From Elusimicrobiota bacterium (lineage in GTDB: Bacteria > Elusimicrobiota > JBDRON01), in NCBI GenBank assembly GCA_043810025.1, contig JBDRON010000033.1:3431-67430 (forward strand): 64,000 nt of DNA, written 5' to 3'. The notes beneath the pieces were generated by a model. The model was not told the DNA's origin. It did no database searches and saw only the letters and a program-made list of their open reading frames with translations. Shown in pieces: positions 4,072 to 29,966 of the stretch. Both the position numbers and the translations under genes were made by a program. Within the stretch, counting starts at the first letter, position 1. Each line of letters starts with the position of its first letter.

Positions 4072-4152
4072 TTCCCTCTTTTAAAAAGAGGGGTAGAGGA
4101 GATTTGATTAATATTTTAAAATCCCCCTTAATCCCCCTTTCAAAAGGGGGAA
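4072..4152. repeat. Dual-hairpin intergenic repeat element, copy A (CCCTCTTTTAAAAAGAGGGG ... CCCCCTTTCAAAAGGGGGAA)
   Basis: An ~80-bp unit of two GC-clamped palindromes, near-identical to copies at 13867..13949 and 29884..29966. It lies 35 nt downstream of the wzc-like stop, between wzc and wzy. Confidence 0.8.
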
Positions 4153-4186
4153 TACTGCAACTAAAAAATGTATTGATCTTTTAAGT

Positions 4187-6112
4187 TTAGGAGACATTGA
4201 ATTTATCGGGTGAAAAAGCGGCGGCTCGTTTTTTTTCCTGGGATTTATTCTCGTCTTTATCCGAATAATACTTGTTGGAATAATAATAACCGTAACGGGA
4301 AGACATCTCCGATACCTTTAAATCGTTCAGCACCACACCCAGTATTTTGGCCTGCGCTCCATCCAGCTGGGTTTTTGCCCGCCGCAGAACGCCGCGGGCC
4401 ATTCTTCCCACCTTATAGACTAAGACCACCCCATCCACTTTTGCGCCGACTAAAAGCGCGTCGGCAAAAAGCAGCACCGGCGGACAATCCAGCACCACCA
4501 GATCAAATTCCTCTTTTAAGGACTTAATCAAATTTTGCATTTGGACCGATCCTAATACATCACCTGGGTTGGGAGGGATAAAGCCGACGGTAATCACCGA
4601 AAGGTTTTCCAGACTCATCGTCTTAATCACCTGCTCAATTTTTAATCCGCCCATCAGAAAATCCGGAGTGCCTTTTAAGGCCTCCCGCCAGGAGACAGTT
4701 CCTAAAACAATATCAGTTAAACCGCAATCGGATTTAACCCCCAGGATTCTTCCTACTGCCGGCCGGCGCAGATCTCCTTCCACCAAAACAACCCGCAGCC
4801 CGGAGGCGGCCGCCGCCAAACTAAAATTGGTGGCGGTTAGAGTCTTGCCTTCTTCGACGCCGGCGCTGGTAAAAGCTACAGTTTTCCCTTTGCCTAAAAA
4901 TGTGGCAAACTTCAAATTTGCCCTCAAGGTATGATAGGCTTCCATGTAAGGGGATTTGGAATTGTGATGAATAATTAAATGCTGGCGAATATTTTCAATT
5001 TTATTCTGATGCGAACCGGCAAATATTTTCCCAAATAGATTATACCGCTCCGCAGGTCCGATATGCGGGATAACGCCCAAGACCGGAATCTTCAAAAAAG
5101 CTTCCACATCTTCAATGGTTCCAATGGAAGTATCCAAATTCTCCAGAATAAAAGCAAAAATCAACCCTAAAAACAGGCCAAGCATCAGGCCAACCAGTAA
5201 ATTCAGTTGCTTATTCGGACGGATCGGACGAATCGGTTCGACGGCTCCGCTGACCGGAGAAGCCATTCGGAACTCATCCGCAGCATCGATTTCCGCTTCT
5301 TTATATCTTTTGGAAAGCAACGTATATAATTCTTCATTTATCCTTAATTCCCGGGACAAACGGGCCAGTTCTAATTCAGTTTTGGGCAGACGGCTCTGTT
5401 CATTTTCCGCATATTTAATTTGTTGTTGGACCTTGATTACCTCCGGATGCTGCGCGGTATATTTTTTAATAATGTTCGCCTTTTGAGTTCGCAGATCGGA
5501 AAGTTTGTTGGCCCAGTAACTGCCCATGCCGCTGGTTCCATTTTTCTCGATATAGACTTTTTTCTCCTCTTCCGCTTTCTGCAGTTTTGTCCTGATTTGT
5601 TCCAGTTGTTTACCGATATAATCTCTCTTCTCCCTCTTGAGAAGAGAATATTCCTTCGCTCCCTTTTTGACGTAGACATCAACCAGAGTATTGGCGATTA
5701 AAGCGGCCTTAGGCGCCTTATCGGAATTGACCGAAATCTGAATTAAATTGCTATCCCCGATTTTATCCACCTGGACACCACTGATAATTGAATTAACTTT
5801 TTCGGCTATTTCCGCGTTGGAAGAATCTTCCTGGATCCAATTTAACCGCAAAGCTGTTTGCCGGACGATCGATTCGCTTTTTATTACCCTGACCTCAGTA
5901 TTGATCAAAGTCCATAAATCCACCTGGCCGTAAGCCGAAAGATCTCTCGGCTGATCCAACTTAATTACGGCCTTCGCCTGGTAAACAGGAGATTGCAAAT
6001 TAGTAAAAACTATCGTTGAAACCAAAACCAATCCAAAAATAAAGCTGACAAGAAGCTTGCGTTTTTTTATTATCCGCCAATAATCATGAAGGTTCAATTC
6101 ATAATCAGCCAT
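4187..6112 (-). CDS. wzc: Polysaccharide co-polymerase / BY-kinase (Wzc/GumC/EpsG-like) with N-terminal Wzz domain and C-terminal P-loop tyrosine kinase
   Basis: N-terminal TM plus a coiled-coil chain-length-determinant region. Walker A (TSAGVEEGKT), Walker A' (VVLVEGDLRRP) and Walker B (LVVLDCPP) are present. A Tyr-rich C-terminal tail is characteristic of BY-kinases. Confidence 0.8.
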   Translation of the reverse strand: MADYELNLHDYWRIIKKRKLLVSFIFGLVLVSTIVFTNLQSPVYQAKAVIKLDQPRDLSAYGQVDLWTLINTEVRVIKSESIVRQTALRLNWIQEDSSNAEIAEKVNSIISGVQVDKIGDSNLIQISVNSDKAPKAALIANTLVDVYVKKGAKEYSLLKREKRDYIGKQLEQIRTKLQKAEEEKKVYIEKNGTSGMGSYWANKLSDLRTQKANIIKKYTAQHPEVIKVQQQIKYAENEQSRLPKTELELARLSRELRINEELYTLLSKRYKEAEIDAADEFRMASPVSGAVEPIRPIRPNKQLNLLVGLMLGLFLGLIFAFILENLDTSIGTIEDVEAFLKIPVLGVIPHIGPAERYNLFGKIFAGSHQNKIENIRQHLIIHHNSKSPYMEAYHTLRANLKFATFLGKGKTVAFTSAGVEEGKTLTATNFSLAAAASGLRVVLVEGDLRRPAVGRILGVKSDCGLTDIVLGTVSWREALKGTPDFLMGGLKIEQVIKTMSLENLSVITVGFIPPNPGDVLGSVQMQNLIKSLKEEFDLVVLDCPPVLLFADALLVGAKVDGVVLVYKVGRMARGVLRRAKTQLDGAQAKILGVVLNDLKVSEMSSRYGYYYSNKYYSDKDENKSQEKKRAAAFSPDKFNVS

Positions 6113-6136
6113 CAGTAATCCTCTTTATGCCGCTGT

Positions 6137-7318
6137 CTAAAAATAAATCACCAGCAGAAGAATAAAATTAACCATCGATATCCAGGGTAGAAAATTGTTT
6201 AGCCAGGCGGCACCTTTCGCCGCGCCTTTTTGCGGCACATAAACTATATCGCCGGGCTTTAATTCAATGTCTTTATCCAATCTTCCTTTATCCAAAATCT
6301 CGGAAAGATTAACTGTAAATACCTGTCGTTTTCCCCCGCTTTCCCGAAAAATCCGAATTTTTCTGATGACCGCATTCGGCGATGTTCCGCCAGCCAGAGA
6401 AACTAATTCGACAACTTTTAATTTTTCTTTATGCTCGTAAGAACCTGGTTTATTCACTTCACCAAAAAGATAAATTTCCTTTGCGCCTCTGGGTATATCG
6501 ACAATATCTCCCACTTCCAGCAAAAAATCTTTGCTTTTTTCCTTTTCTCCCAGATCGATTAGAATAACCTCTCGTTCTGAGTCTTTCCCTCGATAAATTT
6601 TTACCGGTTTTAGCACAGCATGATCGGTAAGACCGCCGGCATGGGTAATTAACTGCCAAAGCCGCAGTTCTTCGCCATATTCATACGCGCCCGGGCGAGC
6701 AACCTCTCCTAAGACAAAAACCGACCTTTGGCTAAAGCGCTTGACGATAACCGACACCTGCGGATTAGAAACATAAAATGAAAGTTTCTTTGTTAAAATT
6801 CCGGCCAATCGCTCGACTGTTAAACCGGCCGCCATAATTTTGCCGATTAAAGACAGCGCAATATTCCCATCAGGCTGAACGATTACATCGCGGTTAAATT
6901 CTTCTGTTGGTGAAACCGAAATCCCGAGCAAATCACCGATAGAAATTATATAATCTTTTTTATCTTTGCCGGCAGCAAGCAGCCCCGCCGCTTCCGGTTT
7001 TTCCTTTTTTTGCTCAATTAATCCAGCTAACTTACCTTCTTTCTGAACCGGTTCCTTATCCCCGCTTTTCCCCATTTTCAGCTTTTCCAATTCCTCTTTC
7101 CAAACAGCAAGTTCTTTCAGGTCTTCCCCGTCATATTTATCGATAATCCGTTCCAACAGATACCGCCGGTCGTTGATGTTTAAATTCTTCTGCTTAACCA
7201 TCCTTTGATAATAACTTAAATCTTTTTGAAAGGATGTTTCCGGATCGTCGGCCAGCCCTAAATTAGCCGCCAGCAGCAAACAAATAAAAACAGAAGTAAA
7301 CATATTTGTTATTTTCAT
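6137..7318 (-). CDS. wza: Polysaccharide export outer-membrane protein (Wza-like; Poly_export + SLBB domains)
   Basis: Has an N-terminal signal peptide. The SIGDLLGISV...PDGNIALSLIGKIMAAGLTVERL motif is Poly_export-like. It is the first gene of the minus-strand EPS operon. Confidence 0.8.
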   Translation of the reverse strand: MKITNMFTSVFICLLLAANLGLADDPETSFQKDLSYYQRMVKQKNLNINDRRYLLERIIDKYDGEDLKELAVWKEELEKLKMGKSGDKEPVQKEGKLAGLIEQKKEKPEAAGLLAAGKDKKDYIISIGDLLGISVSPTEEFNRDVIVQPDGNIALSLIGKIMAAGLTVERLAGILTKKLSFYVSNPQVSVIVKRFSQRSVFVLGEVARPGAYEYGEELRLWQLITHAGGLTDHAVLKPVKIYRGKDSEREVILIDLGEKEKSKDFLLEVGDIVDIPRGAKEIYLFGEVNKPGSYEHKEKLKVVELVSLAGGTSPNAVIRKIRIFRESGGKRQVFTVNLSEILDKGRLDKDIELKPGDIVYVPQKGAAKGAAWLNNFLPWISMVNFILLLVIYF

Positions 7319-7342
7319 AAGGTTTTTGGTTTGGCTATCAAA

Positions 7343-7371
7343 CTTATAACAGCAATTAACTATTTTTGCAA
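7343..7371 (-). promoter_or_regulatory. Sigma70-like promoter of the EPS operon (TTGCAA-17-TATAAG on minus strand)
   Basis: The -35 element is at 7366..7371 and the -10 at 7343..7348 on the minus strand, about 25-50 nt upstream of the wza start. Confidence 0.4.
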
Positions 7372-7422
7372 CTAATTTTTAAAATATTTTAATTTTTCAG
7401 CGAATAGGTTTAGGCAAAAAAA

Positions 7423-7451
7423 AGACCCGGCAATAATTGCCGGGTCTTTTT
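7423..7451 (-). terminator. Rho-independent (bidirectional) terminator downstream of csp
   Basis: A GACCCGGCAATAATTGCCGGGTC perfect hairpin is flanked by an A-run on one side and a T-run on the other. It lies 17 nt past the csp stop. Confidence 0.8.
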
Positions 7452-7467
7452 GTGTTTGCGGATTGGA

Positions 7468-7668
7468 TTATAATTTCGTTACGTTAACGGCTTGTTCGCC
7501 TTTAGGGCCTTTGGTAATCTCGAATTGGACTTCCTGTCCTTCGTCCAAAGACTTATAACCTTCACCCTGAATTGCGCTATGATGCACGAAGACATCATTG
7601 CCGGACTCAGGAGTAATGAATCCATAACCTTTTTGGTTATTGAACCATTTAACTTTCCCTTTAACCAT
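7468..7668 (-). CDS. cspA: Cold-shock protein, CspA family
   Basis: The 66-aa product [34 protein letters not shown] contains the RNP1/RNP2 motifs of the cold-shock domain. An SD (AAAGGAGG) precedes the start. Confidence 0.95.
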
Positions 7669-7723
7669 TGTTTACTGCCTCCTTTCGCTAAAATTCCAGT
7701 AAATGGCGGTAGAAACTAAAAAA

Positions 7724-7756
7724 CCGCAAGGCGAGCTTCTTCTGTATGCCTTGCGG
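7724..7756 (-). promoter_or_regulatory. Hairpin plus U-tract within the csp 5' leader (attenuator-like)
   Basis: On the minus strand, CCGCAAGGC-(15 nt)-GCCTTGCGG is followed by TTTTT. It lies between the predicted csp promoter (-35 at 7826..7831, -10 at 7804..7809) and the csp start. Confidence 0.45.
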
Positions 7757-7803
7757 TACAAGATTTCTACTCACTTATCTACTACTACTTTTAATTCGAG
7801 CTA

Positions 7804-7831
7804 AGTATACAACTTTCCCAAGATTTGTCAA
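7804..7831 (-). promoter_or_regulatory. Sigma70-like csp promoter (TTGACA-16-TATACT)
   Basis: The minus-strand TTGACA is at 7831..7826 and TATACT at 7809..7804. This gives a ~128-nt leader typical of cspA mRNAs. Confidence 0.5.
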
Positions 7832-7922
7832 GCAAAAAATTATTTCAAAAATTATTTCATTAAATTTGTTGCATTATTTGGAAAAATGAGCTATGTATTT
7901 AATAGGAGGGGGGGGGTAATTT

Positions 7923-9275
7923 ATGAAAGTTGAATCTAAACGAATTGTTCTTTGTAAAGGAATTCGCACGCCGATCGGCCACCTGTCTAAATCCCTGGCC
8001 GGCTTTTTGCCGGAAGAGTTAATGAGAATTGCTATCGAAAGTCTGATTAAGCAAACAGCTCTCGATCATCATCTTATCGACGGGGTTATGGTCGGCTGGG
8101 TGGGACAGGGAAGCCATGCTCCGAATATCGCCCGCGTCACCGCTCTGCAGGCTAAATTACCGATTCAAATCCATGCTTTCACTGTTCAAGCCAACTGTGT
8201 TTCCGGAATCGAATCAATCTGCTCGGCCGCCCGGCATATTTTACTGGGTGAAGGCGGCCTGTATTTAGCCGGCGGCACAGAATCGATGTCTAATTTCCCT
8301 TACGTCTTTAGAGGCTCGCGCAAGCTGAAAGAACTGCGTTCTTTGGATACTCTTGTGGCAAATTGGAGCACGGTTTTGGAAAACAAGGAAATTGCCCTTA
8401 CCGACTGTATCGAGGAAGGGCTAACCGATCCGGTGGAACATTTAAATATGGCCGCCACCGCTGAGGTTTGCGCTCAAATTTACGGCGCCACCAGGCCGGA
8501 AGAAGATGAGTATGCCTACGAAAGCTACAAACGCGCGCTGGAAGGCGAGGAAGACGGATTTTATTCCAGCCACATCGCTCCGCTGGTTAAAAACGGTGAA
8601 ACCATCTTAGAAAAAGACGAATATCCTTATCTGCGGGAAAGTCTGGTAAAAAAGAAAGAAATGATTGCCAAAGCCCCGCTTTTTTTTGATTCTCCGGCGA
8701 TGAGCATCAAAGATTTTTATAAAACTTATGGAAAATTTATTTTCGGCAAAGAATATCGGGAAGGCGAAAGCAAAGCCACGGTAACCTTGTTTAACTCCTG
8801 CGCCCGTTCCGACGGCGCAGCGGTGTTTATTGTTACTACCGATGAAATCGCCAGGAAGAATAATTTAGAAATTATGGCGGAAATAAAAAACTGGTCATTC
8901 TACGGTGTCAACCCGGCCGTAATGGGGATCGGACCGGTCTATGCCACCTTAGCCGCTTTAAAAAAGGCCGAGCTAAAATTTGAAGATCTCGACTACATCG
9001 AAGTCCACGAGGCCTTCGCCGCAACCAATGTTTCCATCTTTAAACTTGCCAAAAGCAAATATAATCAGGATTGGGAAAAACTTTGGCGGGAAAGAAGGCT
9101 CAACCATTACGGCGGCTCCATCGCTTTAGGACATCCGCTGGCCGCTACCGGAACAAGAATTATCCTCAACCTTGTGGAAATGATGAAACGCGATCCCTCC
9201 GCCCGCTACGGCCTAGCCACCGCCTGCGCCAGCGGCGGACTGGGCGGAGCGATCATTTTGGAGAAATACAAATAA
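7923..9275 (+). CDS. Thiolase-family acetyl-CoA C-acyltransferase
   Basis: The active-site Cys is in QANCVSG, the catalytic His in GHPLAATG, and the C-terminal motif is ACASGGLGGA. A strong SD (AGGAG) is followed by a G9 homopolymer in the spacer before the ATG. Confidence 0.8.
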   Translation: MKVESKRIVLCKGIRTPIGHLSKSLAGFLPEELMRIAIESLIKQTALDHHLIDGVMVGWVGQGSHAPNIARVTALQAKLPIQIHAFTVQANCVSGIESICSAARHILLGEGGLYLAGGTESMSNFPYVFRGSRKLKELRSLDTLVANWSTVLENKEIALTDCIEEGLTDPVEHLNMAATAEVCAQIYGATRPEEDEYAYESYKRALEGEEDGFYSSHIAPLVKNGETILEKDEYPYLRESLVKKKEMIAKAPLFFDSPAMSIKDFYKTYGKFIFGKEYREGESKATVTLFNSCARSDGAAVFIVTTDEIARKNNLEIMAEIKNWSFYGVNPAVMGIGPVYATLAALKKAELKFEDLDYIEVHEAFAATNVSIFKLAKSKYNQDWEKLWRERRLNHYGGSIALGHPLAATGTRIILNLVEMMKRDPSARYGLATACASGGLGGAIILEKYK

Positions 9276-9373
9276 AATCAGCGTAAAGCGCAAATAGCTC
9301 CTATTATGCTTTATTTTGGGTTAAAAAGTTTTTCTATTTCCGGATGAGCCTTAAGCTCTTGACGGATTCCGTA

Positions 9374-9557
9374 TATAGGGGACGTAGCTGATAGTGTTGA
9401 CAGATTGCGATATACATTATCCAACTGCAAATATAGAACAAAATATTTTTGTTTCAGTTTTTGCAAATTACCCCATCCTAAGCATACTGTCCTTTATCGT
9501 CTCCTATTATTTTTCAGCATCCACATCTGTCAACACTATCAGCTACGTCCCCTATAA
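9374..9557. repeat. 32-bp perfect inverted repeat pair (TATAGGGGACGTAGCTGATAGTGTTGACAGAT) flanking 120 bp
   Basis: The left arm is 9374..9405. The right arm is its exact reverse complement at 9526..9557. The spacer is AT-rich and non-coding. The element lies between the thiolase gene and the TA locus. Confidence 0.85.
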
Positions 9558-9579
9558 GCAATTTTTTTCAGAAAAAACC

Positions 9580-9608
9580 TTGACAAAGTATATATATTTG
9601 TGTATACT
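9580..9608 (+). promoter_or_regulatory. Sigma70-like promoter (TTGACA-17-TATACT) for the prlF/yhaV-like operon
   Basis: TTGACA is at 9580..9585 and TATACT at 9603..9608. The SD AAGGAGG at 9617..9623 precedes the ATG at 9632. Confidence 0.6.
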
Positions 9609-9631
9609 TATAATGAAAGGAGGAATCTATT

Positions 9632-9931
9632 ATGAGTATAATGTTAAGAAGATTATTTAAACACGGCGGCAGTTACGCGGTAGATCTGCCAATGAATTTT
9701 GTGAGGAACGCAGGGAATCTCGAAGTTATTCTGGAGAACACCGCCAAGAGAATAAGTATCCGTCCTAAGACAGAATTAGATACTCTCGAGTCCGATCCGC
9801 TGTTCGCTAAATTTATTAATGCCCTGGCTGTTGATGCGATGAAACATCCAGAAAAACTGCACGAAGCAAAGCATATCTGGGATAAAGAATGGGATGAACT
9901 TCTTAAGGGAGTTACCGCGGATGGGGAGTAA
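9632..9931 (+). CDS. prlF: AbrB/MazE/PrlF-like swapped-hairpin antitoxin
   Basis: KHGGSYAVDLPMNFV resembles the looped-hinge AbrB/MazE fold. The gene lies directly upstream of, and overlaps, a YhaV-family toxin gene. Confidence 0.55.
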   Translation: MSIMLRRLFKHGGSYAVDLPMNFVRNAGNLEVILENTAKRISIRPKTELDTLESDPLFAKFINALAVDAMKHPEKLHEAKHIWDKEWDELLKGVTADGE

Positions 9932-10376
9932 TTACCTTTTAAGATACCATGATTTTTATTTCCAGCGGATAACAAAACTGAAAGAGCAGGTAAAGGAACT
10001 GCGCGCTAAACTTAGTATTGAAGAATTCAGACAACACGAAGTTGTAAAACTTGCCTATCGCATCCGTGAAGCGGATCAAGAGATAATTCCACAGAACCCG
10101 GACCGTCCGGACTATCGCCTAACAGGAAATCTCAAAAAATACCGCCGTTACAAGCAGGGTCTGCAGCGTTACCGGTTATTCTTTTGTTTTTCCAACCAAC
10201 CCAAGATTATTCTATATCTATACTTAAACGACGAAAAGCATCTGCGCAAGGCGCAAGATAAGAATGATCCCTACGAAGAGTTTAGCCGGCTTGTATCTAA
10301 GGGTTATTTTTCGCACAACCCAAATGATTCTCAAATTCAAAAGTGGATAAAAGATTATCGTAAAGAAGATATTTAA
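9921..10376 (+). CDS. yhaV: YhaV-family ribonuclease toxin (type II TA)
   Basis: RYRLFFCFSNQPKIILYLYLNDEKHLRKAQDKNDPY matches E. coli YhaV (RYRLFFRYSEKEKVIILGWMNDENTLRTYGKKTDAY) from memory. The preferred start is ATG 9921 (MGSNY), with an upstream GGGAG. The ORF-track start at 9894 is the alternative. Confidence 0.7.
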   Translation: MGSNYLLRYHDFYFQRITKLKEQVKELRAKLSIEEFRQHEVVKLAYRIREADQEIIPQNPDRPDYRLTGNLKKYRRYKQGLQRYRLFFCFSNQPKIILYLYLNDEKHLRKAQDKNDPYEEFSRLVSKGYFSHNPNDSQIQKWIKDYRKEDI

Positions 10377-10423
10377 TGTCGCAAAAGTAACACTTTTACG
10401 ACGTTGCGAATTTGAATATTTTT

Positions 10424-10577
10424 ATCCCGAAGGGATTTTGGATTATGGAAGCCCCGAAGGGGCGAAGGGGTTTTTGGCGCTTAGCATATTTTCCTGCGCC
10501 CTTTCAGGGCTTATTAATGGGATATTTCTTTTTCGGGGGTTAAAACCCCCGCCTATATTCCGGCGTCCTTTCAGGAC
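10424..10577. repeat. Cluster of five short GC-stem hairpins in a non-coding gap
   Basis: The hairpins are ATCCC-GAA-GGGAT, GCCCC-GAA-GGGGC, GCGCCC-TTTCA-GGGC, CGGGGG-TTAAAA-CCCCCG and GTCC-TTTCA-GGAC. No credible ORF overlaps them. Confidence 0.5.
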
Positions 10578-10810
10578 TTTAATGATGCAACTGTTTTCAA
10601 GTGAAAATTTTAATTGCCGCAATTCCTTTTATTGCCATTTTTTCCCAACACCGACGACACCCCTCCCCAAAAAAACCTTAACAAAAAATTAACATACTCT
10701 TAACACGAACTTAACATGAATATGGTACATTTTTAGAGAGATTCAGCCCAAATCTTCCTCTGAAACCGGACATTTTGGCAATTACTCCCAGAAGCCTTTG
10801 TAAATAGTAG

Positions 10811-10853
10811 TTGACAAGGTGTATCATTTCTGATACACTTACATTGTCAAAAC
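10811..10853 (+). promoter_or_regulatory. Promoter with palindromic operator (TTGACA...GTGTATCA-TTTC-TGATACAC...TACACT) for the RHH/RelE operon
   Basis: TTGACA is at 10811..10816, an 8-bp perfect inverted repeat sits inside the spacer, and the -10 TACACT is at 10834..10839. This is the classic autoregulatory layout of TA operons. Confidence 0.6.
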
Positions 10854-10867
10854 AGGAGGTGATTGTA

Positions 10868-11107
10868 ATGACCACAAAACATCCAAGAATTAATCTGGTA
10901 ATCGAAGAACCGATATTCCATATTTTGAAAGACTTGTCGAAAGCTAATTCTCTTTCTCTGTCTTCTCAGGTTAAAAATTTAGTTCTTAAAGCTCTGGAAG
11001 ACATCGAAGATATGGGACTTAACCGGATCGCTGATTATCGAGAAAAAACCTTTAACCGGAAAAATGCTTTATCGTTTGATGAAATGATGAAGAGGTTAGA
11101 TAAATAA
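10868..11107 (+). CDS. Ribbon-helix-helix (CopG/RelB/ParD-like) antitoxin
   Basis: The N-terminal beta-strand MTTKHPRINLVIEEPIF is followed by helices and paired with a downstream RelE/ParE toxin gene. The start was chosen at ATG 10868 after SD AGGAGG; the ORF track extends to 10811 through the promoter. Confidence 0.6.
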   Translation: MTTKHPRINLVIEEPIFHILKDLSKANSLSLSSQVKNLVLKALEDIEDMGLNRIADYREKTFNRKNALSFDEMMKRLDK

Positions 11108-11111
11108 TTTT

Positions 11112-11390
11112 ATGGAATACAAAATTATTTTCGATGAACGTGTTCTCAAAAACGATTTCAAAGCAATCAATCAAAACCTCCAGCAAAGAATAATGACGGC
11201 AATTAAGACCCGTTTAACAGTTTCACCGGAACAATACGGAGCACCGCTGCATAAAACCTTAAAATCTTTCTGGAAATTGCGGGTGGGAGACTACCGGGTC
11301 GTTTTTAAAATCTTTAAAACAGAAATTCACATCTTCGCCATCATGCACCGTAAAAAAGTTTACCTCGCCGCTCTGAACCGCATTAAATAA
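11112..11390 (+). CDS. RelE/ParE-family toxin
   Basis: The 92-aa protein carries LRVGDYRVVF...IFAIMHRKKVY, typical of RelE/ParE. It lies 4 nt after the antitoxin stop. Confidence 0.8.
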   Translation: MEYKIIFDERVLKNDFKAINQNLQQRIMTAIKTRLTVSPEQYGAPLHKTLKSFWKLRVGDYRVVFKIFKTEIHIFAIMHRKKVYLAALNRIK

Positions 11391-11537
11391 CCGGAGTAAC
11401 CCGCCAGAAGAGAAAAACATCGTGAATACCCAGGATAAAAGTTATCTTCAAAGCTTCAATCTCCATCCTCCAATTTCAGCCTGAGCAGTTAAAATTTAAT
11501 CCCCCAACCAAAAACATAATTCTAAAACGCAAAATTT

Positions 11538-13562
<2,025 letters not shown>

Positions 13563-13664
13563 TTACGAAATTTTGTGAAGATATTCAAAGTCTTGAGTCT
13601 TGAGTAATGCGTCTTGAGCTTGATTCTTTAAACTCACAACCCATGACTCATAACTCATGACCCG

Positions 13665-13808
13665 TTATGACAATCTTTTTCGAGAGTTGCAAGCCGACTG
13701 ACTGATTGGCGGAACACTCCAGCATTTGCCGCAGGCTAAAGCGGTTGTTTCTAAAATTTTTTCTGAAATAATCTCCGGTTTTTTGTAAGGTTTTTTTTTC
13801 TTAGGCAT
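13665..13808 (-). CDS. Unannotated 47-aa Lys-rich/Cys-containing peptide (MPKKKKPYKKPEIISEKILETTALACGKCWSVPPISQSACNSRKRLS); candidate RiPP precursor
   Basis: Hand-translated from the minus strand. The ATG is at 13808..13806, the SD AAAGGAGA lies 6 nt upstream, and the TAA stop is at 13667..13665. Three Cys residues sit in the C-terminal half. It lies downstream of the PqqD-like and rSAM/SPASM genes on the same strand and falls below the 60-aa ORF-track cutoff. Confidence 0.35.
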   Translation of the reverse strand: MPKKKKPYKKPEIISEKILETTALACGKCWSVPPISQSACNSRKRLS

Positions 13809-13866
13809 CGGCTTTCTCCTTTTAAAAAAACAGAACTTAGTCTACCTTCAATGCGCGATTTTTCAT

Positions 13867-13949
13867 TTCCCTCTTTTAAAAAGAGGGGTAGGGGAGATTT
13901 TGACAACATTTTCTAAATCCCCCTCAATCCCCCTTTCTAAAAGGGGGAA
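13867..13949. repeat. Dual-hairpin intergenic repeat element, copy B
   Basis: Same two-palindrome architecture and sequence as copies A and C. It lies 27 nt downstream of the rSAM stop, between the rSAM gene and the small peptide ORF. Confidence 0.8.
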
Positions 13950-13975
13950 CTCATAATGCTACAATATAAATCCTT

Positions 13976-14977
13976 CTACAACTTTCCACTAATTTGGCAA
14001 TAGAGGTTTGCCGGGCCGAATAAATCGCCGTCTTCCAAATAGGCGATCCCCGGACAACGTTGACAGACGGCATAGCGGGAACATTTCGCGCAAACCGGCA
14101 AATCCTGCAGTTTTATTTTTCGAAAATTTTGTAATTCTTGGGAACCGGACCAGATTTCGGCGAATGATTGCCGGCGCAGATCTCCCATTTCTATCGGCAA
14201 CTGCAAACAGGGCAGCACTTTTCCTGCGGCCGTAACCGTAACTAAATTTTTACCGGCGCTGCAAAAAAAATCATCGGAAGAAAAACTTCCGCCAACGGAA
14301 CTGCCGGCAAAGTTTTTACCTTGGGCAAAAGCTTTCCTGATCACCGGCAGGGGAAGCCGGTAAGCTAACGGGCGGCGATCGCCGTTATCGCGCGGCGTCA
14401 CAATAAAATCAAATTTTATTTTCACTCCTAACTGACCGGCCAATTGTTTAAGCTTCTTTTGTTCTCCCGCATTAAGGGTCATCAAAAGCGATTTAATTTT
14501 TACGGATACGGCTCTTTCTTTTAAGAGTTTAATCGCCTTTAAGGAACGAGTAAACGAACCTTTTACCCCGGTAATTTTTTCATGGACGGCCGGAGCGGCC
14601 GCATAAAGACTAATATGCACTTCCTGCAAGCTGAGCCGCGCTAACGCCTCGGCCTCCGTTCTCTCGATTAGCGTACCGTTGGTAAACAGCGATAAGGCAA
14701 ATCCTTTTTGCCGGGCAAGGCGAATAATCTTCAGCGCATCCGGCCGGCTAAAAATTTCCCCGCCGGTAAAAATTAGATACAGGCCTCCGGCTTTAGCTAA
14801 TTGATTGAATAAATCAGTCAGTTCTTCGTAAGACAAAATATCAGCTTTTTGATTTTTTACTTTACAGCAATGGAGACAAGAAAGATTGCAATCATCGGTA
14901 AGTTCGACAATTGTATCCAAAGGAATATTATTTTCCAAAGAAAGCCTAAACATCTCCCCGGAAATTGAAGAGTTCAT
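13976..14977 (-). CDS. Radical SAM / SPASM-domain peptide-modifying enzyme
   Basis: The N-terminal motif is CNLSCLHC (CX3CX2C). The C-terminal Cys-rich twitch/SPASM cluster is CSAG...C...CAKCSRYAVCQRCPG. It overlaps the PqqD-like gene by 4 nt. Confidence 0.85.
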   Translation of the reverse strand: MNSSISGEMFRLSLENNIPLDTIVELTDDCNLSCLHCCKVKNQKADILSYEELTDLFNQLAKAGGLYLIFTGGEIFSRPDALKIIRLARQKGFALSLFTNGTLIERTEAEALARLSLQEVHISLYAAAPAVHEKITGVKGSFTRSLKAIKLLKERAVSVKIKSLLMTLNAGEQKKLKQLAGQLGVKIKFDFIVTPRDNGDRRPLAYRLPLPVIRKAFAQGKNFAGSSVGGSFSSDDFFCSAGKNLVTVTAAGKVLPCLQLPIEMGDLRRQSFAEIWSGSQELQNFRKIKLQDLPVCAKCSRYAVCQRCPGIAYLEDGDLFGPANLYCQISGKL

Positions 14978-15246
14978 TTCTTTTCCACAATCCCCTTGCC
15001 CGACAATAGCTCCAAAAAATCCAGCGCATCGGCTAAAACAGTTGATTGATCAACATCGTATACCCCGGCGAGAGAAGCGGAAATTTCTTCCGTAGTATTC
15101 TTTCCATCCAACAACTCCCAAATAAACATCCCCTGCTCGTTAAACTGGTGCAAAGTCGAATCTTTGGGAGTAACCACAAACACCGTCTCCGCTATTTTCC
15201 GCCAAGCGATATTTTTACTTTTTATATACCGGGATTCCTTAATCAT
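14974..15246 (-). CDS. PqqD-family RiPP recognition element (peptide chaperone)
   Basis: The 90-aa protein carries WRKIAETVFVV...LHQFNEQGMFIWELLDGKNTTEEI...YDVD...DFLELL, the PqqD consensus. It is translationally coupled to the rSAM gene. Confidence 0.8.
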   Translation of the reverse strand: MIKESRYIKSKNIAWRKIAETVFVVTPKDSTLHQFNEQGMFIWELLDGKNTTEEISASLAGVYDVDQSTVLADALDFLELLSGKGIVEKK

Positions 15247-15294
15247 ATCTCCAAATCTCCTTTATCTTGTGTCCTGCAGCCTGCTATATGCTAT

Positions 15295-15323
15295 ATTATA
15301 AATCTTAAACCCAAATTTTGCAA
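15295..15323 (-). promoter_or_regulatory. Sigma70-like promoter (TTGCAA-17-TATAAT) of the pqqD-rSAM operon
   Basis: The minus-strand -35 is at 15323..15318 and the -10 TATAAT at 15300..15295. No small ORF lies between it and pqqD. Confidence 0.5.
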
Positions 15324-15455
15324 CAGGACAACGGAATTTGAGTGGAATTTGAGAAAAAAATAAAAATCGCTTGAATTTTTTTGGTATCTGGTTATATCTT
15401 TAAAGGCGGGTGAACTTTAACTTGCTGTAAAGCAGAAAAATCTAAAGGAGAAACA

Positions 15456-16148: not shown

Positions 16149-16155
16149 AAGGGAT

Positions 16156-16839: not shown

Positions 16840-16880
16840 CGCGCACCATCCTTATAACTATTTTAAGGTAATCTAACGCC

Positions 16881-18786: not shown

Positions 18787-18860
18787 TTTGGGATATTATA
18801 TATTCATTTCTCCGTAGAGTCAATTATTTTTTCAATGTTTTATTTTGAAAATTCATTTTA

Positions 18861-18937
18861 GACGAGACCTTGGTGCGCCTGGGCAGATTCGAACTGCCGA
18901 CCTGCGGATTCGAAGTCCGACGCTCTATCCAGCTGAG
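18861..18937 (-). tRNA. tRNA-Arg (anticodon TCG), CCA encoded
   Basis: The minus-strand sequence GCGCCTGTAGCTCAGCTGGATAGAGCGTCGGACTTCGAATCCGCAGGTCGGCAGTTCGAATCTGCCCAGGCGCACCA folds as a cloverleaf. The acceptor pairs 7 of 7, the T-arm is GGCAG/CTGCC, and the anticodon loop is CTTCGAA. Confidence 0.8.
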
Positions 18938-19039
18938 CTACAGGCGCATCCCAACTTTTTTATTTCAACAAGCCAGTTGTATTCTACTACAAAACTTCAA
19001 GTAAGGGAAGAGGAAAACCAAAAATCGCGGTTCTAGGGG

Positions 19040-20200
19040 TTAATAGCGGAAGATTGCGGAGATTAGGGATTGATCGGGTAACTGCCCGGGATGAACGGCG
19101 TAAACTGTTCCGCCGTGCAGCAAAGTGTGGAAGGCGGCCAGGTTTAACAAATCATCGTCGCCAGCGATTTCTTTGGGGTGAAGTTCGACCGCTTCGTTGA
19201 TCGAATCGAATATCCCCCATTTTTGAACACCAACGGCTACAAACAATGAATCAACTCTTCCATGGTGAGCGGCCGGGACAATTGATTCCAGTTTATTGGA
19301 AACTTTTTCCGTCTTCGCTAGTTGATTGTAGCGTTTCATCGCCTCTTCTTGTTTTCTTCTAAAAAACGGTTCAACTAACGGCCAGGCCAGAAAGCGCAAT
19401 TCTTCTGCCGTGAGCAACTCCGGATTGCCAGGAACGCTGTCTTCAACCAAATAAGGATAGGTGTTCACTTGCCGGTAAATCGACCCCTGATATTCAACAC
19501 AGGCCAAAACCAGAGGAGAGTGTGCTTCTTTTAAGAAATTATGCAGCCCTTGATTCACCTGCTGAAAAAAACGGCCAATATTGATTTTGAAATCATCAAT
19601 ATCTTCAGCCTGAAGATGACAGATAGATCCCCGCTTCCCGCCTTTCGTCATTCTCGACGATACCCCGCTGTGGAACTGCAGATGAGGTTCGTAAATATCA
19701 TGTTGGATGGTTTCGGCAAGACTTTCCGGCATTCCTTTTACTTTAATTTCCTGGCAACTGTATCGACTGCTTTGCAACAGCCTTACCTTGTTTTGGCTGA
19801 TCGCTAAGACATAGAACTGCCCATCATCCATAACTATGGGAAGAAGCGGCTTCAGATGAAAATGATTACTCACTACCACCAATTCTTCAAACACCAGCGG
19901 CAAACGATAATAGACAAGGGTTTCGGCCGATAAAAAAAAGGCCAGCCCATCGCCTTGATGCTGAAAAAAAAGCGTATCCCCCAATACTGCTTGAAGCGGC
20001 TTTAACATTTTTTCCACTTCAAGTTTAGGCACGCCTTTTTGGAGCAAAAAACCCTCCGCTTGCCTAAACATATTCTTAAATCTGATTTGATCATCCAAAG
20101 TATAAGTTACGCGCCGGTGAGTAGACAAATAAATTGAAACGCACCATCCTTTTTCTCTGGCAATTAATTCCTTAAGATCGGATTTTTGGATTAGGTCCAT
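19040..20200 (-). CDS. Hypothetical protein (386 aa), function unknown
   Basis: A long ORF with its own divergent promoter region shared with the ABC-2 permease gene. No motif I can name with confidence. Confidence 0.5.
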   Translation of the reverse strand: MDLIQKSDLKELIAREKGWCVSIYLSTHRRVTYTLDDQIRFKNMFRQAEGFLLQKGVPKLEVEKMLKPLQAVLGDTLFFQHQGDGLAFFLSAETLVYYRLPLVFEELVVVSNHFHLKPLLPIVMDDGQFYVLAISQNKVRLLQSSRYSCQEIKVKGMPESLAETIQHDIYEPHLQFHSGVSSRMTKGGKRGSICHLQAEDIDDFKINIGRFFQQVNQGLHNFLKEAHSPLVLACVEYQGSIYRQVNTYPYLVEDSVPGNPELLTAEELRFLAWPLVEPFFRRKQEEAMKRYNQLAKTEKVSNKLESIVPAAHHGRVDSLFVAVGVQKWGIFDSINEAVELHPKEIAGDDDLLNLAAFHTLLHGGTVYAVHPGQLPDQSLISAIFRY

Positions 20201-22936: not shown

Positions 22937-22954
22937 ACCTAATTATAGCAAATT

Positions 22955-24562
22955 CTACTTCTCTCCGGCAATCACCAGAATCATCCCTTTTTTGATCTTG
23001 ACGGAGTAGAGGAAAGCATCTTCCTGTTCTTCCATTATATTTAGCTTTAAAAACCGGCATTCTTTTTCTGCGGTTGTATAATAGAGAACAATTTTGTCCG
23101 CCATGATCTTGTTTTCCGCCAGCCAGGATTTGCTAATTTTCAAGTGTAAAATTGAATTCTTTATCTCCAAAGGGGAATCAAACTTATAAACACTGTGCAC
23201 CACCGCCGCCTGACCAATCAAACCGTTAAGTTCTTCCGGCGGGGCAGGTAATTGCTCCAAAGCCAAATTGAGCGGGCAATCTTTTCCCAGCCGTTGACGC
23301 GTTAAGAAACTCAGTTGAACCAGCAAGGGATCGTCAAAAGATATTTTCACCTCCGACTCGATGGCTTGAGGTGAAATCCTCAACGGTTTAATTTTAATAT
23401 CTTTGCTCACCGCCTTTTGGTTACCGGCTTCCGACCCTTGCTTATCCGGCAAAACATTTTTTTCTTCTACCTTGGCCGCCGCACAGACCGGTTTTTGCCG
23501 GAAAGATTCCTTCTCCACTTTTTGACCGAACCGGGCGGAAAGAGAAAACCGATAAGTGTTCCCCAAAATACCCTGGGGTAAAAAAGCAAAATCAAATTGA
23601 TAATTGCTAATCCTCAGTCCGATTCCCGTAGATAATCCGGAAAGATCGCCTAAATCGTTGCCGTACAGTTTATAACGGTAACCGGCGCGCAGCGCCAGCT
23701 GTTTAAACCAATATTCTCCGCCCGCTGTTACCTTTGTATAATTATCGATGGATTGCGCTAAATCCAGGGAAAAAACCATCCTTTCCTTTAATGGCCGCCA
23801 GGCCATCCCCAGTTGCGCGGTTAACGGCAGATTGTAACTGCGGCTAACCACCTTCAAGGCTGGGCCAAAATTTCGGATCGCCCCACCCCAACTGATCTGG
23901 CGCCAAAAATTTCCCCAAGCCAGGGGACTGCGGGCAATAAAACCGGCATCCAAACCGACACTTGTTCCGCTTTGATTATCGATTTCCTGCCGGATAATTT
24001 TTAAATTCAGGCCGCCGGACAGAGAGCGGTTAAACTGATAGCCATAACTAAGACCGGCGGCAAAATCGTTGGCGCCGAAACTGCCTTCCGATTCCGTCAA
24101 CGGCTCCTCCGGAATATTCTCATTATCCCCGCTGCGCCGCTCCAGATCCTTGGGATAAAACAACCCGGTCAAGCCAAAACCCCAAACATCCCTGGTCCGC
24201 GGATAAACATATCCCAGGAAATCATGCTGTAAATCCTGGAACCATTGATTGTGCATCGCCGATACTTCCTGCTGCCGTATCCGGTTAAGCCCGGCCGGAT
24301 TGGCAAAAACAGCGCTGGGATCGTCACAAACTGCCGCCGCATTCCCCCCCATACCGCCGGCCCGCGCCCCGACAATTAGTTTCAGAAAAGCAGCGCTGGT
24401 CGAACCAGCCGCCTGATGCACCCGGGCGGCTTCGGCGAAAGTAAAAAACAGTCCAAGCAAAATTAAAACAAAAACCGGCTGTTTGCCCTTACCCCAGACC
24501 ACTTTGAAGATATTGGCAACCAGCCGGTAAATAAATTTAAAATAAGATTTATCTTTGCGCAT
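22955..24562 (-). CDS. PorV/PorQ-family (T9SS-associated) outer-membrane beta-barrel protein with C-terminal extension
   Basis: A signal/TM segment is followed by LKLIVGARAGGMGGNAAAVCDDPSAVFANPAGL, matching the PorV/LptO N-terminal signature, and by beta-strand-rich sequence. An extra ~150-aa C-terminal domain is present. Confidence 0.5.
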   Translation of the reverse strand: MRKDKSYFKFIYRLVANIFKVVWGKGKQPVFVLILLGLFFTFAEAARVHQAAGSTSAAFLKLIVGARAGGMGGNAAAVCDDPSAVFANPAGLNRIRQQEVSAMHNQWFQDLQHDFLGYVYPRTRDVWGFGLTGLFYPKDLERRSGDNENIPEEPLTESEGSFGANDFAAGLSYGYQFNRSLSGGLNLKIIRQEIDNQSGTSVGLDAGFIARSPLAWGNFWRQISWGGAIRNFGPALKVVSRSYNLPLTAQLGMAWRPLKERMVFSLDLAQSIDNYTKVTAGGEYWFKQLALRAGYRYKLYGNDLGDLSGLSTGIGLRISNYQFDFAFLPQGILGNTYRFSLSARFGQKVEKESFRQKPVCAAAKVEEKNVLPDKQGSEAGNQKAVSKDIKIKPLRISPQAIESEVKISFDDPLLVQLSFLTRQRLGKDCPLNLALEQLPAPPEELNGLIGQAAVVHSVYKFDSPLEIKNSILHLKISKSWLAENKIMADKIVLYYTTAEKECRFLKLNIMEEQEDAFLYSVKIKKGMILVIAGEK

Positions 24563-24824
24563 ATTTTATTTCGGCAACCCGGCGACCGTGCCCCGGTTCT
24601 TCATCGAAGTTTAGGCCCGTAGCTTTGCGTCCCCGCCTTTCGACGAGTTTGCTATTATCGGTAAAAATAACTAATCTACTTTCAGACCCACCATATATAT
24701 AACATAAATCTCTGAAAAGTCAAGCTAAAAATTTAATATTAAGTTGTATTGTTTATATTACAAGGATAGAGGTAAGCTGTTTAGTTCTCATTGAGTAAAG
24801 ACGGTTCGAGATTGCTCAAAAAAT

Positions 24825-26306: not shown

Positions 26307-26363
26307 AATGTCTAAAATATGAAGAGGTTTCTTGTCAAATTACGTAAACTATCAGGGTTTTAT

Positions 26364-29300: not shown

Positions 29301-29858
29301 CGCCGGCGAAGAATAAACAAACTGACCCACCGGATAACTCCAAAGCAAATTGGCGGCCGCTGCGTCTAAAGCCAAAATTTCTTTCCGGGGATAACCGGCA
29401 CCGAAAAATATTTTACCCTTCGCGATCACCGGCGAAGAATTATCCGCTGACCCCGTATTATAGGTCCAGCGGATGTCACCGGTTAAGGCATCAAAAGCAT
29501 AAAGATTACCATCCCGGCAGGAAAGATAAACCGTCCCGCTGGAAACCAGCGGGGTGGAATCTACCCAGCCGCTGGTCGAATACTGCCAGACCACCTCCCC
29601 CGTGTAAGCGTCAAAGGCAAAAATACTCATATCCCGGGCGCCGATATAAACCATTCCGCGGGCCGTCACCGGCGAAGAAACAATATTGTCCCCGATGTTA
29701 TATTTCCACTGATAATCCCAGCTGCCGCCGGGCGGATAAGCCTGCTCGTGCGTATAGCCGCTGCGATTGACATTCCCCCGAAACATCGGCCAATCCGCGG
29801 AATAAGCAGCGGGTGCAAGTGACCAGATTAAAATAATAATTTTTATTAAACGGTTCAT
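26364..29858 (-). CDS. Secreted PQQ-like beta-propeller / fibronectin-III repeat protein with T9SS C-terminal sorting domain
   Basis: A signal peptide (MNRLIKIIILIWSLAPAAYSA) is followed by repeated G.VY.G..DG.LYA.DA.TG...W propeller blades and several FN3-like modules. The C-terminal ~80 aa, YTYPNPAKGGSVTFKY...VYNVAGEKV...SGVYIYHLEA, fits the T9SS type A sorting-domain consensus. Confidence 0.8.
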   Translation of the reverse strand: MNRLIKIIILIWSLAPAAYSADWPMFRGNVNRSGYTHEQAYPPGGSWDYQWKYNIGDNIVSSPVTARGMVYIGARDMSIFAFDAYTGEVVWQYSTSGWVDSTPLVSSGTVYLSCRDGNLYAFDALTGDIRWTYNTGSADNSSPVIAKGKIFFGAGYPRKEILALDAAAANLLWSYPVGQFVYSSPAVSGNKLFAGANDGKFYCLDSANGQSLWSFSTQGSIFFSSPAVENGVVYCLPGDDDRKLYALDINKGTMLSGWTTPDFSVQSTNVSSPAAARGRVYLLSGFSPVKLFALSAANGSVIWQKSLGNATDIGFLPSPAVVNDLVYAASPDGNLYVLKAGDGTEVVSKNLGTSLASSPCIANGWLYIGTKDGHIYAFKAERVSAISSPASGELFSGNVEKINIRGSAFGPNFSSYLLEYGAGENPAQWTEIIYSTMSVDNGLLVNWPLTEVLDGLYTLKLTVNELPASGDDTTTAAIVQINLPPAPPQELTVVDNLLDEGGVINLLWSKSIDDGDNDNDLQEYLIYRSTVSGSYNYGQPYAILPAGTTFYQDSSVLTGQPFYYQMRSYDGVWYSANSSEKEGIALDNQPPSAPKNVLAVPGDGKLNLSWDLNSELDIRAYLIYRSTDNLNYQYLTLLYHPVNNYLQTELTNDLTYYFKLQATDVWNNQSPFSGEVHTFPYAGADLEPPAAITDLVVRTGESAGEVVLSWTAPGDDGVTGKAVSYNIRYTVDANFYWESYFTLAEVWQSLRLTGGEAGFAETEVVSGLKEGVTCYFCLRSVDNASNWSANSNLGSASAQVDLTLPAAPQNLAASDVAEDFGSAVNLSWQKSADDGSGADDVAGYRVYRSTNAALGSFSLVVSLTKGRQNYQDSGLNAGEEYYYLVRAYDQWQESPPSNLAKITPLNNWLPINPDEEGNLLLEDGTEVSFEKGSFPAGEKYWVLVKKLSAGEYAETGISAKVRATNVVRDFSLLTENQRVQLQNKSVAQVREFVESNAEIKFKKLVTIKLPYQEVDLSRMKEENLRLYYWNTEKNKWTIINTSQVDRSNKKVSAKVSHFSIYRVMEFLASGDLLDKKSVYTYPNPAKGGSVTFKYYLGEKADVSIDVYNVAGEKVAELKGGGEAGLVSETVWEIKNIASGVYIYHLEARSAHGKAEVMKKLAVLH

Positions 29859-29883
29859 CAGCGAACACCTTCCTTGATATTTA

Positions 29884-29966
29884 TTCCCCTCTTTATAAAA
29901 GAGGGGCTAGGGGAGTTTAAACAGACAGAACCTAACCCCCTTAATCCCCCTTTATAAAAGGGGGAA
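29884..29966. repeat. Dual-hairpin intergenic repeat element, copy C
   Basis: CCCCTCTTTATAAAAGAGGGG...CCCCCTTTATAAAAGGGGGAA lies 32 nt downstream of the giant-gene stop and upstream of the cargo gene start. Confidence 0.8.

Follow-up and report, generated by a model that had tools for sequence, protein, structure and literature searches.

Inverted pairs of triplex-code repeat units in an Elusimicrobiota genome: a cross-phylum family of the BoxC/PIT/TM class with a candidate DUF559 nuclease partner

Introduction

The closest described relatives of the element reported here are the BoxC repeats, which are the same sequences as the PIT elements (Hoyne & Maher) and were described as an intrastrand triplex motif under the name TM_ECO (Holder 2015, PMC4666352). 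The TM_ECO consensus is CCCTCNCCC N3-6 GGGNGAGGG N3 GGGNGAGGG, with 9-nucleotide (nt) stems and a 3-nt second loop of TTA or CCG, and 3610 copies were reported from 262 proteobacterial genomes, always in intergenic positions and without strand bias or association with a gene class (PMC4666352). Escherichia coli MG1655 has 23 copies, and five loci are inverted pairs that always contain both unit types. TM_ECO was also linked to local genomic variability, and BLAST searches gave no association with mobile elements (PMC4666352). In the ~30 years since their description, no function, mobility mechanism, or partner gene has been assigned to these repeats, and our literature search found no later paper on BoxC, PIT, or TM repeats. 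Here, we analyzed a 64-kb stretch of contig JBDRON010000033.1 from an Elusimicrobiota bacterium (assembly GCA_043810025.1; hereafter, the window), which contains exactly three copies of an ~83-bp repeat at positions 4072–4152, 13867–13949, and 29884–29966. We favor, with moderate confidence, the reading that these copies are inverted pairs of triplex units of the BoxC/PIT/TM kind, that they are insertion-derived and non-autonomous, and that a DUF559 nuclease is their likely partner in trans.

The window copies resemble BoxC/PIT/TM_ECO in the order and size of their parts, i.e., a 9-nt arm, a 3–6-nt loop, a 9-nt arm, a 3-nt second loop (often TTA), and a 9-nt third strand, ~37 nt in total. They are likewise a class II purine motif, intergenic, multi-copy, free of strand or gene-class bias, and arranged as inverted pairs of two unit types with a short spacer; the layout of the window pairs recurs exactly in the E. 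coli TM_ECO pair between gcvP and ygfF. However, there are clear differences. The window family has C5T3/A3G5 arms with T.A-T triads at the loop end, whereas TM_ECO has CCCTCNCCC, and the window units (TCCCYCTTT...AAAGRGGGG/A) fail the TM_ECO consensus, which places them in the same class but in another sequence family. In addition, the window family occurs in at least 12 phyla, whereas TM_ECO was reported from Proteobacteria only; its off-center interruptions permit a true covariation test; and its units occur inside miniature inverted-repeat transposable elements (MITEs) and in phage and viral contigs, in contrast to TM_ECO, for which no association with mobile elements was reported. The link with DUF559 genes described below is absent from Holder 2015 (PMC4666352). 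Judged by its sequence, the repeat is a new cross-phylum family within the BoxC/PIT/TM class, and it extends this class, with near-identical units, over many phyla and into phages.

Structure of the Repeat Units

In each window copy, two ~35-nt units stand tail to tail in inverted orientation, and the copy as a whole is an imperfect inverted repeat of the unit. A unit comprises a 9-nt pyrimidine arm, a 3–5-nt loop, the complementary 9-nt purine arm, a 2–3-nt linker, and a mirroring 9-nt segment of G, A, and T. On the plus strand, the first half of a copy consists of hairpin H1 (CCCTCTTT-loop-AAAGAGGG), TA or CTA, GGGGAGATTT, and a variable spacer of 13–16 nt, and the second half consists of AAATCCCCC, TYAAT, and hairpin H2 (CCCCCTTT-loop-AAAGGGGG). 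An earlier examination of the window from its letters alone (hereafter, the sequence-only reading) had described a dual hairpin with a separate conserved element, TAGRGGAG, between the hairpins. The two outer hairpins were borne out, but this description overlooked the connection with BoxC/PIT elements, the mirror third strands, and a third, central stem, in which GGGGAGATTT pairs with AAATCCCCC to give either three hairpins or one long hairpin; the conserved TAGRGGAG is not a linker but the third strand of a mirror repeat. The minimum-energy fold with DNA parameters had three hairpins on all six strands (z = −2.0 to −4.4), and RNA parameters favored one long hairpin for copies 1 and 2. These folds were computed with Watson–Crick pairs only, and the support for a triplex is the base-triad contingency presented in the next section.

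The class II (ITxF) definition of an intrastrand triplex comprises pyrimidine, purine, and reverse-Hoogsteen G/A/T blocks, with stems of 6–15 nt (≥ 8 nt being meaningful), at most one mismatch, and loops of 1–6 nt. All six window units conform to it, with 9/9/9 blocks, a first loop of 3–5 nt, and a second loop of 2–3 nt; their third strands are imperfect in the left unit of copy 1 and the right unit of copy 3. The motif is over-represented in the window, as no match occurred in 100 dinucleotide-preserving shuffles, and both hairpin patterns match nothing but these three sites in the 64 kb with up to three mismatches allowed. The window pairs always combine one GAGGGG-type and one GGGGGA-type unit, and because the units are inverted, each DNA strand bears one foldable unit. 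A single-stranded unit could form a hairpin to which the third strand binds in the purine motif (G.G-C, A.A-T, and T.A-T triads), and the two third strands of a pair may alternatively pair with each other as the central stem.

In copy 1, the left unit (4073–4105, class II on the plus strand) reads TCCCTCTTT / loop / AAAGAGGGG / TA / GAGGAGATTT, where the third strand has one surplus A relative to a perfect mirror, and the right unit, called U (4119–4152, class II on the minus strand), reads TTCCCCCTTT / loop / AAAGGGGGA / TTA / AGGGGGATTT. The left unit of copy 2 (13867–13901, plus strand) is a perfect mirror with nine triads, TTCCCTCTTT / loop / AAAGAGGGG / TA / GGGGAGATTT, and is followed by a right unit U (13915–13949, minus strand) of TTCCCCCTTT / loop / AAAGGGGGA / TTG / AGGGGGATTT. 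Copy 3 is also a complete inverted pair, with a left unit (29884–29918, plus strand) of TTCCCCTCTTT / loop / AAAGAGGGG / CTA / GGGGAGTTT and a right unit U (29933–29966, minus strand) of TTCCCCCTTT / loop / AAAGGGGGA / TTA / AGGGGGTTA; the third-strand tail of the latter is degenerate, as is the AAAT that precedes it (TAA). When the copies were aligned with their flanks, similarity was lost beyond TTCCC...GGGAA, i.e., the copies are discrete. The flanks of the three copies are unrelated, and a segmental duplication, which the sequence-only reading had considered as a way in which it could fail, was ruled out.

Covariation of the Third Strand

The segment that follows the hairpin mirrors its purine arm in every unit, e.g., AAAGAGGGG / TA / GGGGAGATTT. 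The mirror repeats of H-DNA are similar in being homopurine/homopyrimidine with a short center, but the units described here have their complementary pyrimidine arm on the same strand, so that a triplex can form from one single strand without borrowing from a duplex. We examined the mirror relation in a family dataset of 285 related loci, which comprises 2.0 Mb of repeat-anchored DNA, 572 units, and at least 12 phylum-level lineages. Variants with an interrupted arm were anchored at two unambiguous boundaries, AAA/G and G/ATTT. All five interrupted types were mirror-identical (GAGGGG at 45–48 loci, GGGAGG at 9–10, GGGAGA at 9, GGAGGG at 6, and GGGGAG at 4–5), although each type may stem from one event, which gives ~5–7 independent events and not hundreds; off-diagonal, non-mirror combinations of arms were rare. 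Among 108 informative arms that were free of the constraint of the search pattern, 78 showed mirror identity, compared with 29.5 on average and at most 43 in 10,000 shuffling trials.

A second test assumed no mirror relation and asked only for permitted base triads. Within the loci, 199 of the 594 perfect 9-bp pyrimidine/purine hairpins precede a strand that is triad-compatible at 9/9 positions, mostly after a 3-nt linker, whereas the shuffled controls reached at most 8 compatible positions and never 9/9. A G in the purine arm stood opposite G in 621 of 647 cases (96%), and an A stood opposite A or T in 379 of 388 (98%). T opposite A is permitted by the antiparallel purine motif and is not expected from plain mirror identity. 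This contingency cannot be produced by Watson–Crick pairing. The third strand thus obeys the triad rules of the purine motif through several independent compensatory variants, and the triplex fold would then be a selected feature of the unit that may also form in cells.

Other origins of the mirror relation were considered. Alternative hairpins, a long hairpin, and a direct repeat, all of which depend on Watson–Crick pairing, were ruled out: the direct-repeat register gave one match in the 108 arms, and interrupted left arms pair perfectly inside their own hairpin, but a bulge would be expected for them in the long hairpin. A G-quadruplex was also ruled out, because each strand has only three G-tracts and because the A interruptions, instead of being avoided, co-vary in mirror register. 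At three loci of Xanthomonadaceae (L015, L062, and L105), an additional small hairpin lies between the first hairpin and the third strand, and its stem has compensatory changes between genomes.

Distribution and Placement of the Family

The sequence-only reading had proposed a dispersed family of discrete elements comparable to repetitive extragenic palindromic (REP) sequences or MITEs, and this part of it agrees well with our data, since the ends are sharp and copies are present in genomes, metagenomes, and viral contigs. An exact scan for the right-hand unit detected at least 117 stretches in contigs of one genome per species, and a scan of metagenomes for the complete pair detected at least 120, i.e., the family is not limited to the window. 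The lineages with the right-hand unit are Gamma- and Betaproteobacteria, Desulfobacterota/Thermodesulfobacteriota, Nitrospirota, Chloroflexota, Acidobacteriota, Omnitrophota, Zixibacteria, Ignavibacteria/Kapaibacteria, Schekmanbacteria, Riflebacteria, Binatota, Deferribacterales, and others; a further 47 stretches were found in IMG/VR viral contigs. Positions outside the search pattern are also conserved, namely AAAT before the unit (94–98%, including solo units) and A at +1 (94%), and beyond these borders conservation is random. The C5T3 consensus had no BLAST match in 5426 E. coli genomes and two partial matches in plasmids, and a literature search with the literal repeat sequence returned only papers on silver-nanocluster DNA.

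The 572 units include 170 solo units, 118 tail-to-tail pairs of the window type (a class enriched by the metagenome search pattern), 71 head-to-head or overlapping arrangements, and 29 tandem arrangements. Dense arrays were found at L214 (2090–3120, 22 units, with a tandem periodicity of ~100 nt), L192 (6790–7830, 13 units), and L238 (14 units), and a DUF559 gene lies inside the arrays of L214 and L192. Units similar to TM_ECO (CCCTCTCCC..GGGAGAGGG..GGGTGAGGG) were present at L005, L011, L031, L069, L086, L087, L159, L242, and other loci; their hosts are Nitrospirota, Schekmanbacteria, Desulfobacterota, and viral contigs, which is beyond the proteobacterial range of 2015.

All three window copies sit between co-oriented minus-strand open reading frames (ORFs), and the distances of copies 1, 2, and 3 are 34, 26, and 31 nt from the upstream stop and 78, 58, and 25 nt to the next start. 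Copy 1 lies between a Wzc-like gene (stop 4187), which encodes a Wzz/GNVR/AAA_31 kinase-like protein, and a Wzy-like gene (start 3993) with a weak Wzy_C match. Copy 2 is located between a gene for a radical S-adenosylmethionine (SAM) enzyme with a SPASM domain (stop 13976) and a 47-aa Cys-rich peptide ORF (start 13808), which is followed by ligA. Copy 3 separates a giant ORF of 9405 aa (stop 29998) from a beta-propeller protein (start 29858) with a Por_Secre_tail domain, i.e., a sorting tail of the type IX secretion system (T9SS). The position of the copies, their spacing of about 30 nt after a stop, and the identity of their neighbors as given by the sequence-only reading were therefore confirmed, including its view that the elements are not classic intrinsic terminators. 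Although the GC-rich hairpins downstream of a stop codon recall Rho-independent terminators, no T-run follows either hairpin on either strand in any of the three copies, and an intrinsic terminator was thus ruled out; across the family, units are also equally common beside gene starts and in divergent regions. A consensus scan of window positions 1–20000 found no terminator-like site at copies 1 and 2, and an Rfam search found nothing at the elements at the gathering threshold, with a permissive search giving noise at copy 2 (E ≥ 2.7).

The further proposal that the element targets, or is retained at, intra-operon gaps ~30 nt after a stop did not hold for the family. The genes flanking the units at genome loci were co-oriented in 57 cases, convergent in 17, and divergent in 15, and unit orientation relative to the genes was unbiased (29 with both on minus versus 26 with both on plus). 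The median distance to a flanking stop was 105 nt (interquartile range 28–243), equal to that to starts, and the spacing seen in the window is inside this broad range. Placement is thus random with respect to stops and orientation, an outcome that the sequence-only reading had itself set against its proposal, and together with the missing U-tract this leaves both the terminator and the operon-gap readings unsupported. No association with a gene class was found among the neighboring ORFs.

These data also bear on the RNA roles that the sequence-only reading had suggested (stabilizer, RNase processing site, or polarity element), i.e., on operon punctuation, in which the mRNA hairpins, or a long hairpin of ~35 bp, would keep 3' exonucleases away from the upstream cistron or serve as RNase III cleavage sites and thereby uncouple the expression of neighboring genes. 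The three window copies do lie in co-oriented gene strings with the same polarity, and their minus-strand RNA has folding energies of −34 to −42 kcal/mol, with copies 1 and 2 each forming one long hairpin; however, the same orientation in three of three copies has a chance of 0.25, and in the family as a whole, orientation is unbiased and units are no more common at 3' ends than at 5' ends or in divergent promoter regions. In one phage lineage (IMG/VR loci L121, L129, L133, L136, L141, L144, L149, and L152), the end of a unit is 8 nt upstream of a start codon, so that its AGGGGGA run resembles a ribosome-binding site; the 37-nt unit is 100% conserved there, and the adjacent coding sequence has diverged. 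Against a role in RNA, the pattern conserved in the third strand is that of the purine motif, with T as well as A opposite A, and work cited in PMC4666352 is reported there to show that purine-motif triplexes form in DNA and are excluded in RNA. PIT elements had neither promoter nor terminator activity in E. coli, as Holder 2015 (PMC4666352) cites Hoyne & Maher (2002). We therefore consider RNA punctuation unlikely, and for this locus the evidence counts against reading the elements as terminators or as dedicated operon regulators.

Evidence of Insertion

Three states of one site were found at the livK-livH junction of related Smithella genomes: an empty site, TGAcgcaaatATG, with a gap of 7 nt; a solo unit with a gap of 87 nt; and a pair-DUF559-pair arrangement with a gap of 644 nt. 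In Haemophilus phage SuMu (L287 701–736; NC_019455.1 15687–15722), a solo unit with 100% identity to the family consensus is embedded in the annotated coding sequence of the portal protein, and it adds a net 27 nt relative to the homologue of Mannheimia phage vB_MhM_3927AP2, i.e., it is read through in frame. For annotation, the repeats account for odd in-frame inserts of this kind as well as for spurious small ORFs (peptides such as PLNPPFSKGE) and contig breaks. For the window copies themselves, a relative was sought for an empty-site comparison, and the nearest LigA relative, at 71% identity, was not syntenic. The copies are most likely insertions that neither encode a protein nor move autonomously, from a repeat family that spreads horizontally and is analogous to REP doublets (REPINs), and the window copies would have arrived in this way. 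Some MITEs are tolerated in operons, e.g., Chunjie of Geobacter. Similarly, the operon spacers of the window probably hold copies because short intergenic gaps tolerate insertions, and not because the copies are stop-linked regulatory signals.

A sublineage in Methylococcaceae and lake metagenomes has the pair as the core of a ~105-bp MITE with outer terminal repeats GTAAGYRTTCAGTC ... GGTGAAYRCTTAC, and many copies have perfect 8-bp AT-rich target duplications, e.g., AGTTCAAG, CTTCTCAT, CATTGAGT, and AATTTAAC (L020, L065, L070, L086, L167, L190, L212, L229, L253, and others). The outer repeats GTAAGYRTTCAGTC resemble IS66-type ends (ISfinder). Could the whole family then be an ordinary cut-and-paste MITE of a DDE insertion sequence, with the arms as transposase-bound terminal repeats and the triplex symmetry as an incidental feature? 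The family does resemble MITEs in being small, non-coding, inverted-repeat elements between operon genes, but terminal repeats together with target duplications occur only in the Methylococcaceae-type sublineage, whereas the window copies and most others have neither. Moreover, the pair is the internal cargo of the MITE and not its ends, the same core occurs inside different outer inverted repeats in different lineages, and incidental symmetry does not explain why G faces G and A faces A or T. The chance that the DDE explanation is correct is, in our view, very slim.

The opposite possibility is that the repeat is not mobile and that the host maintains it, locus by locus, as a DNA structure that absorbs supercoils, pauses replication or transcription, or promotes local recombination. 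It would fit with this that the arms are much better conserved than the spacers within one genome, that the unit of the phage lineage described above is completely conserved between diverged coding flanks, and that Holder et al. tied TM_ECO to local genomic variability. However, the presence and absence of the unit at an orthologous site (livK-livH), the widely different copy numbers of related strains, the hitch-hiking of copies in MITEs, and the copy inside a phage portal gene are all difficult to reconcile with selection at each locus, as is the missing link to a gene class. We regard a non-mobile, host-maintained structure as improbable.

A DUF559 Nuclease as the Candidate Partner

When the ORFs near the units were clustered, an ORF of ~120 aa was found in five loci, bracketed by units on both sides, and these were the unit-richest loci (L214 with 22 units and L192 with 13). 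The ORF belongs to DUF559 (PF04480, E = 1e-34), a family of predicted Vsr-like PD-(D/E)xK nucleases whose E. coli member is YcjD (PMC1189080). A hidden Markov model (HMM) search of the 2.0 Mb detected no DUF559 gene beyond these, i.e., five of five were flanked by units on both sides. The association was then predicted for E. coli ycjD before its locus was inspected, and a TM_ECO unit was found 160 nt downstream of the gene, together with a degenerate unit over the stop codon. Between ycjD and the TM_ECO unit of E. coli K-12, there is also a partial duplicate of the ycjD 3' end (L289 2822–2880 versus 2929–2985); this duplicate is confined to the ycjD locus (one or two places per genome), and its being part of a dispersed repeat was ruled out.

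Three DUF559 genes of the Smithella type, chosen by protein homology, all adjoin a unit: P0144 has a complete window-type pair 50–130 nt upstream, P0122 has complete pairs on both sides, and P0214 has only a degenerate unit. All three genes are located inside operons (SIR2-TANGO2, livK-livH, and macA-macB). In 43 viral contigs anchored on DUF559, 12 units were detected in the 22.0 kb within 300 nt of the gene, compared with 8 in the remaining 150.4 kb, which corresponds to an ~10-fold enrichment, and two of the viral genes are bracketed on both sides. The amino acid identity of the nucleases is 47–87% among those adjacent to C5T3/C6T3 units, 44–58% among those adjacent to TM_ECO-like units, including YcjD, and 33–52% between the two groups; the nuclease clade matches the repeat type. 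The distribution of ycjD in E. coli also fits a partnership: the gene was found in 3378 of the 5426 complete genomes, and it belongs to phylogroups A, B1, and C, with eefRABCD taking its place in B2 and others (PMC12817139). In Holder's table (PMC4666352), A/B1 strains have 19–30 TM_ECO copies, B2 strains, which lack ycjD, have 1–2, and a few others have 6–13. The trans-acting partner of the repeat family is probably a ~120-aa, YcjD-like DUF559 endonuclease of the Vsr fold, which would act on the repeats; its own gene is flanked by pairs and also inserts into operon spacers.

This association parallels the one between REP sequences and RAYT transposases and is correlative. As in REP/REPIN-RAYT systems, short palindromic units occur solo, as inverted doublets with variable spacers, and in arrays, and one small gene is bracketed by repeats, its clade matching the repeat type. 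The family could be taken for REP/REPIN sequences that are mobilized by a RAYT, i.e., an IS200/IS605-type Y1 transposase: the inverted doublets with conserved arms, short variable spacers, solo units, and tandem arrays resemble REPs, REPINs, and bacterial interspersed mosaic elements, and TAG or CTAG follows the first hairpin in many copies. However, no transposase family, Y1 included, recurs among the 865 ORFs within 1.5–2 kb of the units at the 285 loci, and the sole small bracketed gene encodes a PD-(D/E)xK nuclease of the Vsr fold and not an HUH Y1 transposase. The clustering of flanks for composite elements was confounded by units that escape the detector. Furthermore, the units here have a mirror third strand, and near-identical units span phyla, unlike REPs, which are specific to a species or genus. 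To our knowledge, mirror covariation plays no role in RAYT-REP recognition as described, which also counts against this explanation. We give mobilization by a RAYT only a slim chance, though a less slim one than a DDE origin.

Returning to insertion-derived triplex-unit pairs with a DUF559 partner, several results weigh against this preferred reading. We know of no PD-(D/E)xK nuclease that transposes DNA alone, nor of a chemistry that would let such an enzyme spread the units. The HMM search gave no DUF559 gene within the 64-kb window, and 38 of the 43 viral DUF559 loci have no unit under the strict detector. The spacers of the three window copies are unrelated, which counts against recent copying of whole pairs from one master, and core-only pairs without outer terminal repeats, including the window copies, have no target duplication at any offset. 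The identity of the core across phyla was partly imposed by the exact-pattern scans. The contrast in TM_ECO number between E. coli phylogroups is essentially one phylogenetic event, and strains without ycjD keep 6–13 copies (O157 Sakai, 11; 042, 12–13; IAI39, 6). Finally, a TM_ECO oligonucleotide formed a triplex in vitro, but dimethyl sulfate footprinting detected none in vivo and no phenotype was found (PMC4666352).

More tentatively, and with rather less confidence than for the window copies, it is possible that BoxC/PIT/TM repeats in general are satellites of a selfish YcjD/DUF559 nuclease. The autonomous unit would then be pair-DUF559-pair, the hairpin with its third strand would be recognized on single-stranded DNA, and nuclease clades and repeats would have diversified together. 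If this is true, DUF559/YcjD would gain a function, the origin of BoxC would be accounted for, and selection on a DNA triplex code in bacteria would have its first support from comparative genomics. The repeated bracketing of DUF559 genes, seen in several independent samples and including E. coli ycjD, makes the question of the partner experimentally tractable in E. coli K-12.

Other Features of the Window

Several features of the window other than the repeat were recorded, all on the minus strand unless stated. In the region 13665–14977, the radical SAM/SPASM enzyme is followed by repeat copy 2 and then by the 47-aa ORF, which is Lys-rich, contains Cys, and has a good ribosome-binding site; the enzyme and the ORF look like a maturase-precursor pair for a ribosomally synthesized and post-translationally modified peptide that is split by the repeat. 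The 9405-aa ORF (29998–58215) consists mostly of repeats of ~110 aa (327–342 nt), with a lamin-tail domain and a PQQ-like beta-propeller in its C-terminal part, and the protein encoded after it is a 1164-aa beta-propeller/fn3 protein with a T9SS sorting tail. A cyclic di-GMP-I riboswitch (24570–24663) was detected with 75.3 bits (gathering threshold 35) directly upstream of a 535-aa ORF of the UPF0164 family (22955–24562). Two other RNA matches scored below their thresholds: a full-length match to the cspA thermoregulator at 7417–7775 (64.3 versus 78 bits, E = 3e-14), where several weak matches to small RNA models overlap in the AT-rich leader, and a match to Acido-Lenti-1 RNA on the plus strand at 10533–10578 (35.4 versus 37 bits, E = 1e-4).

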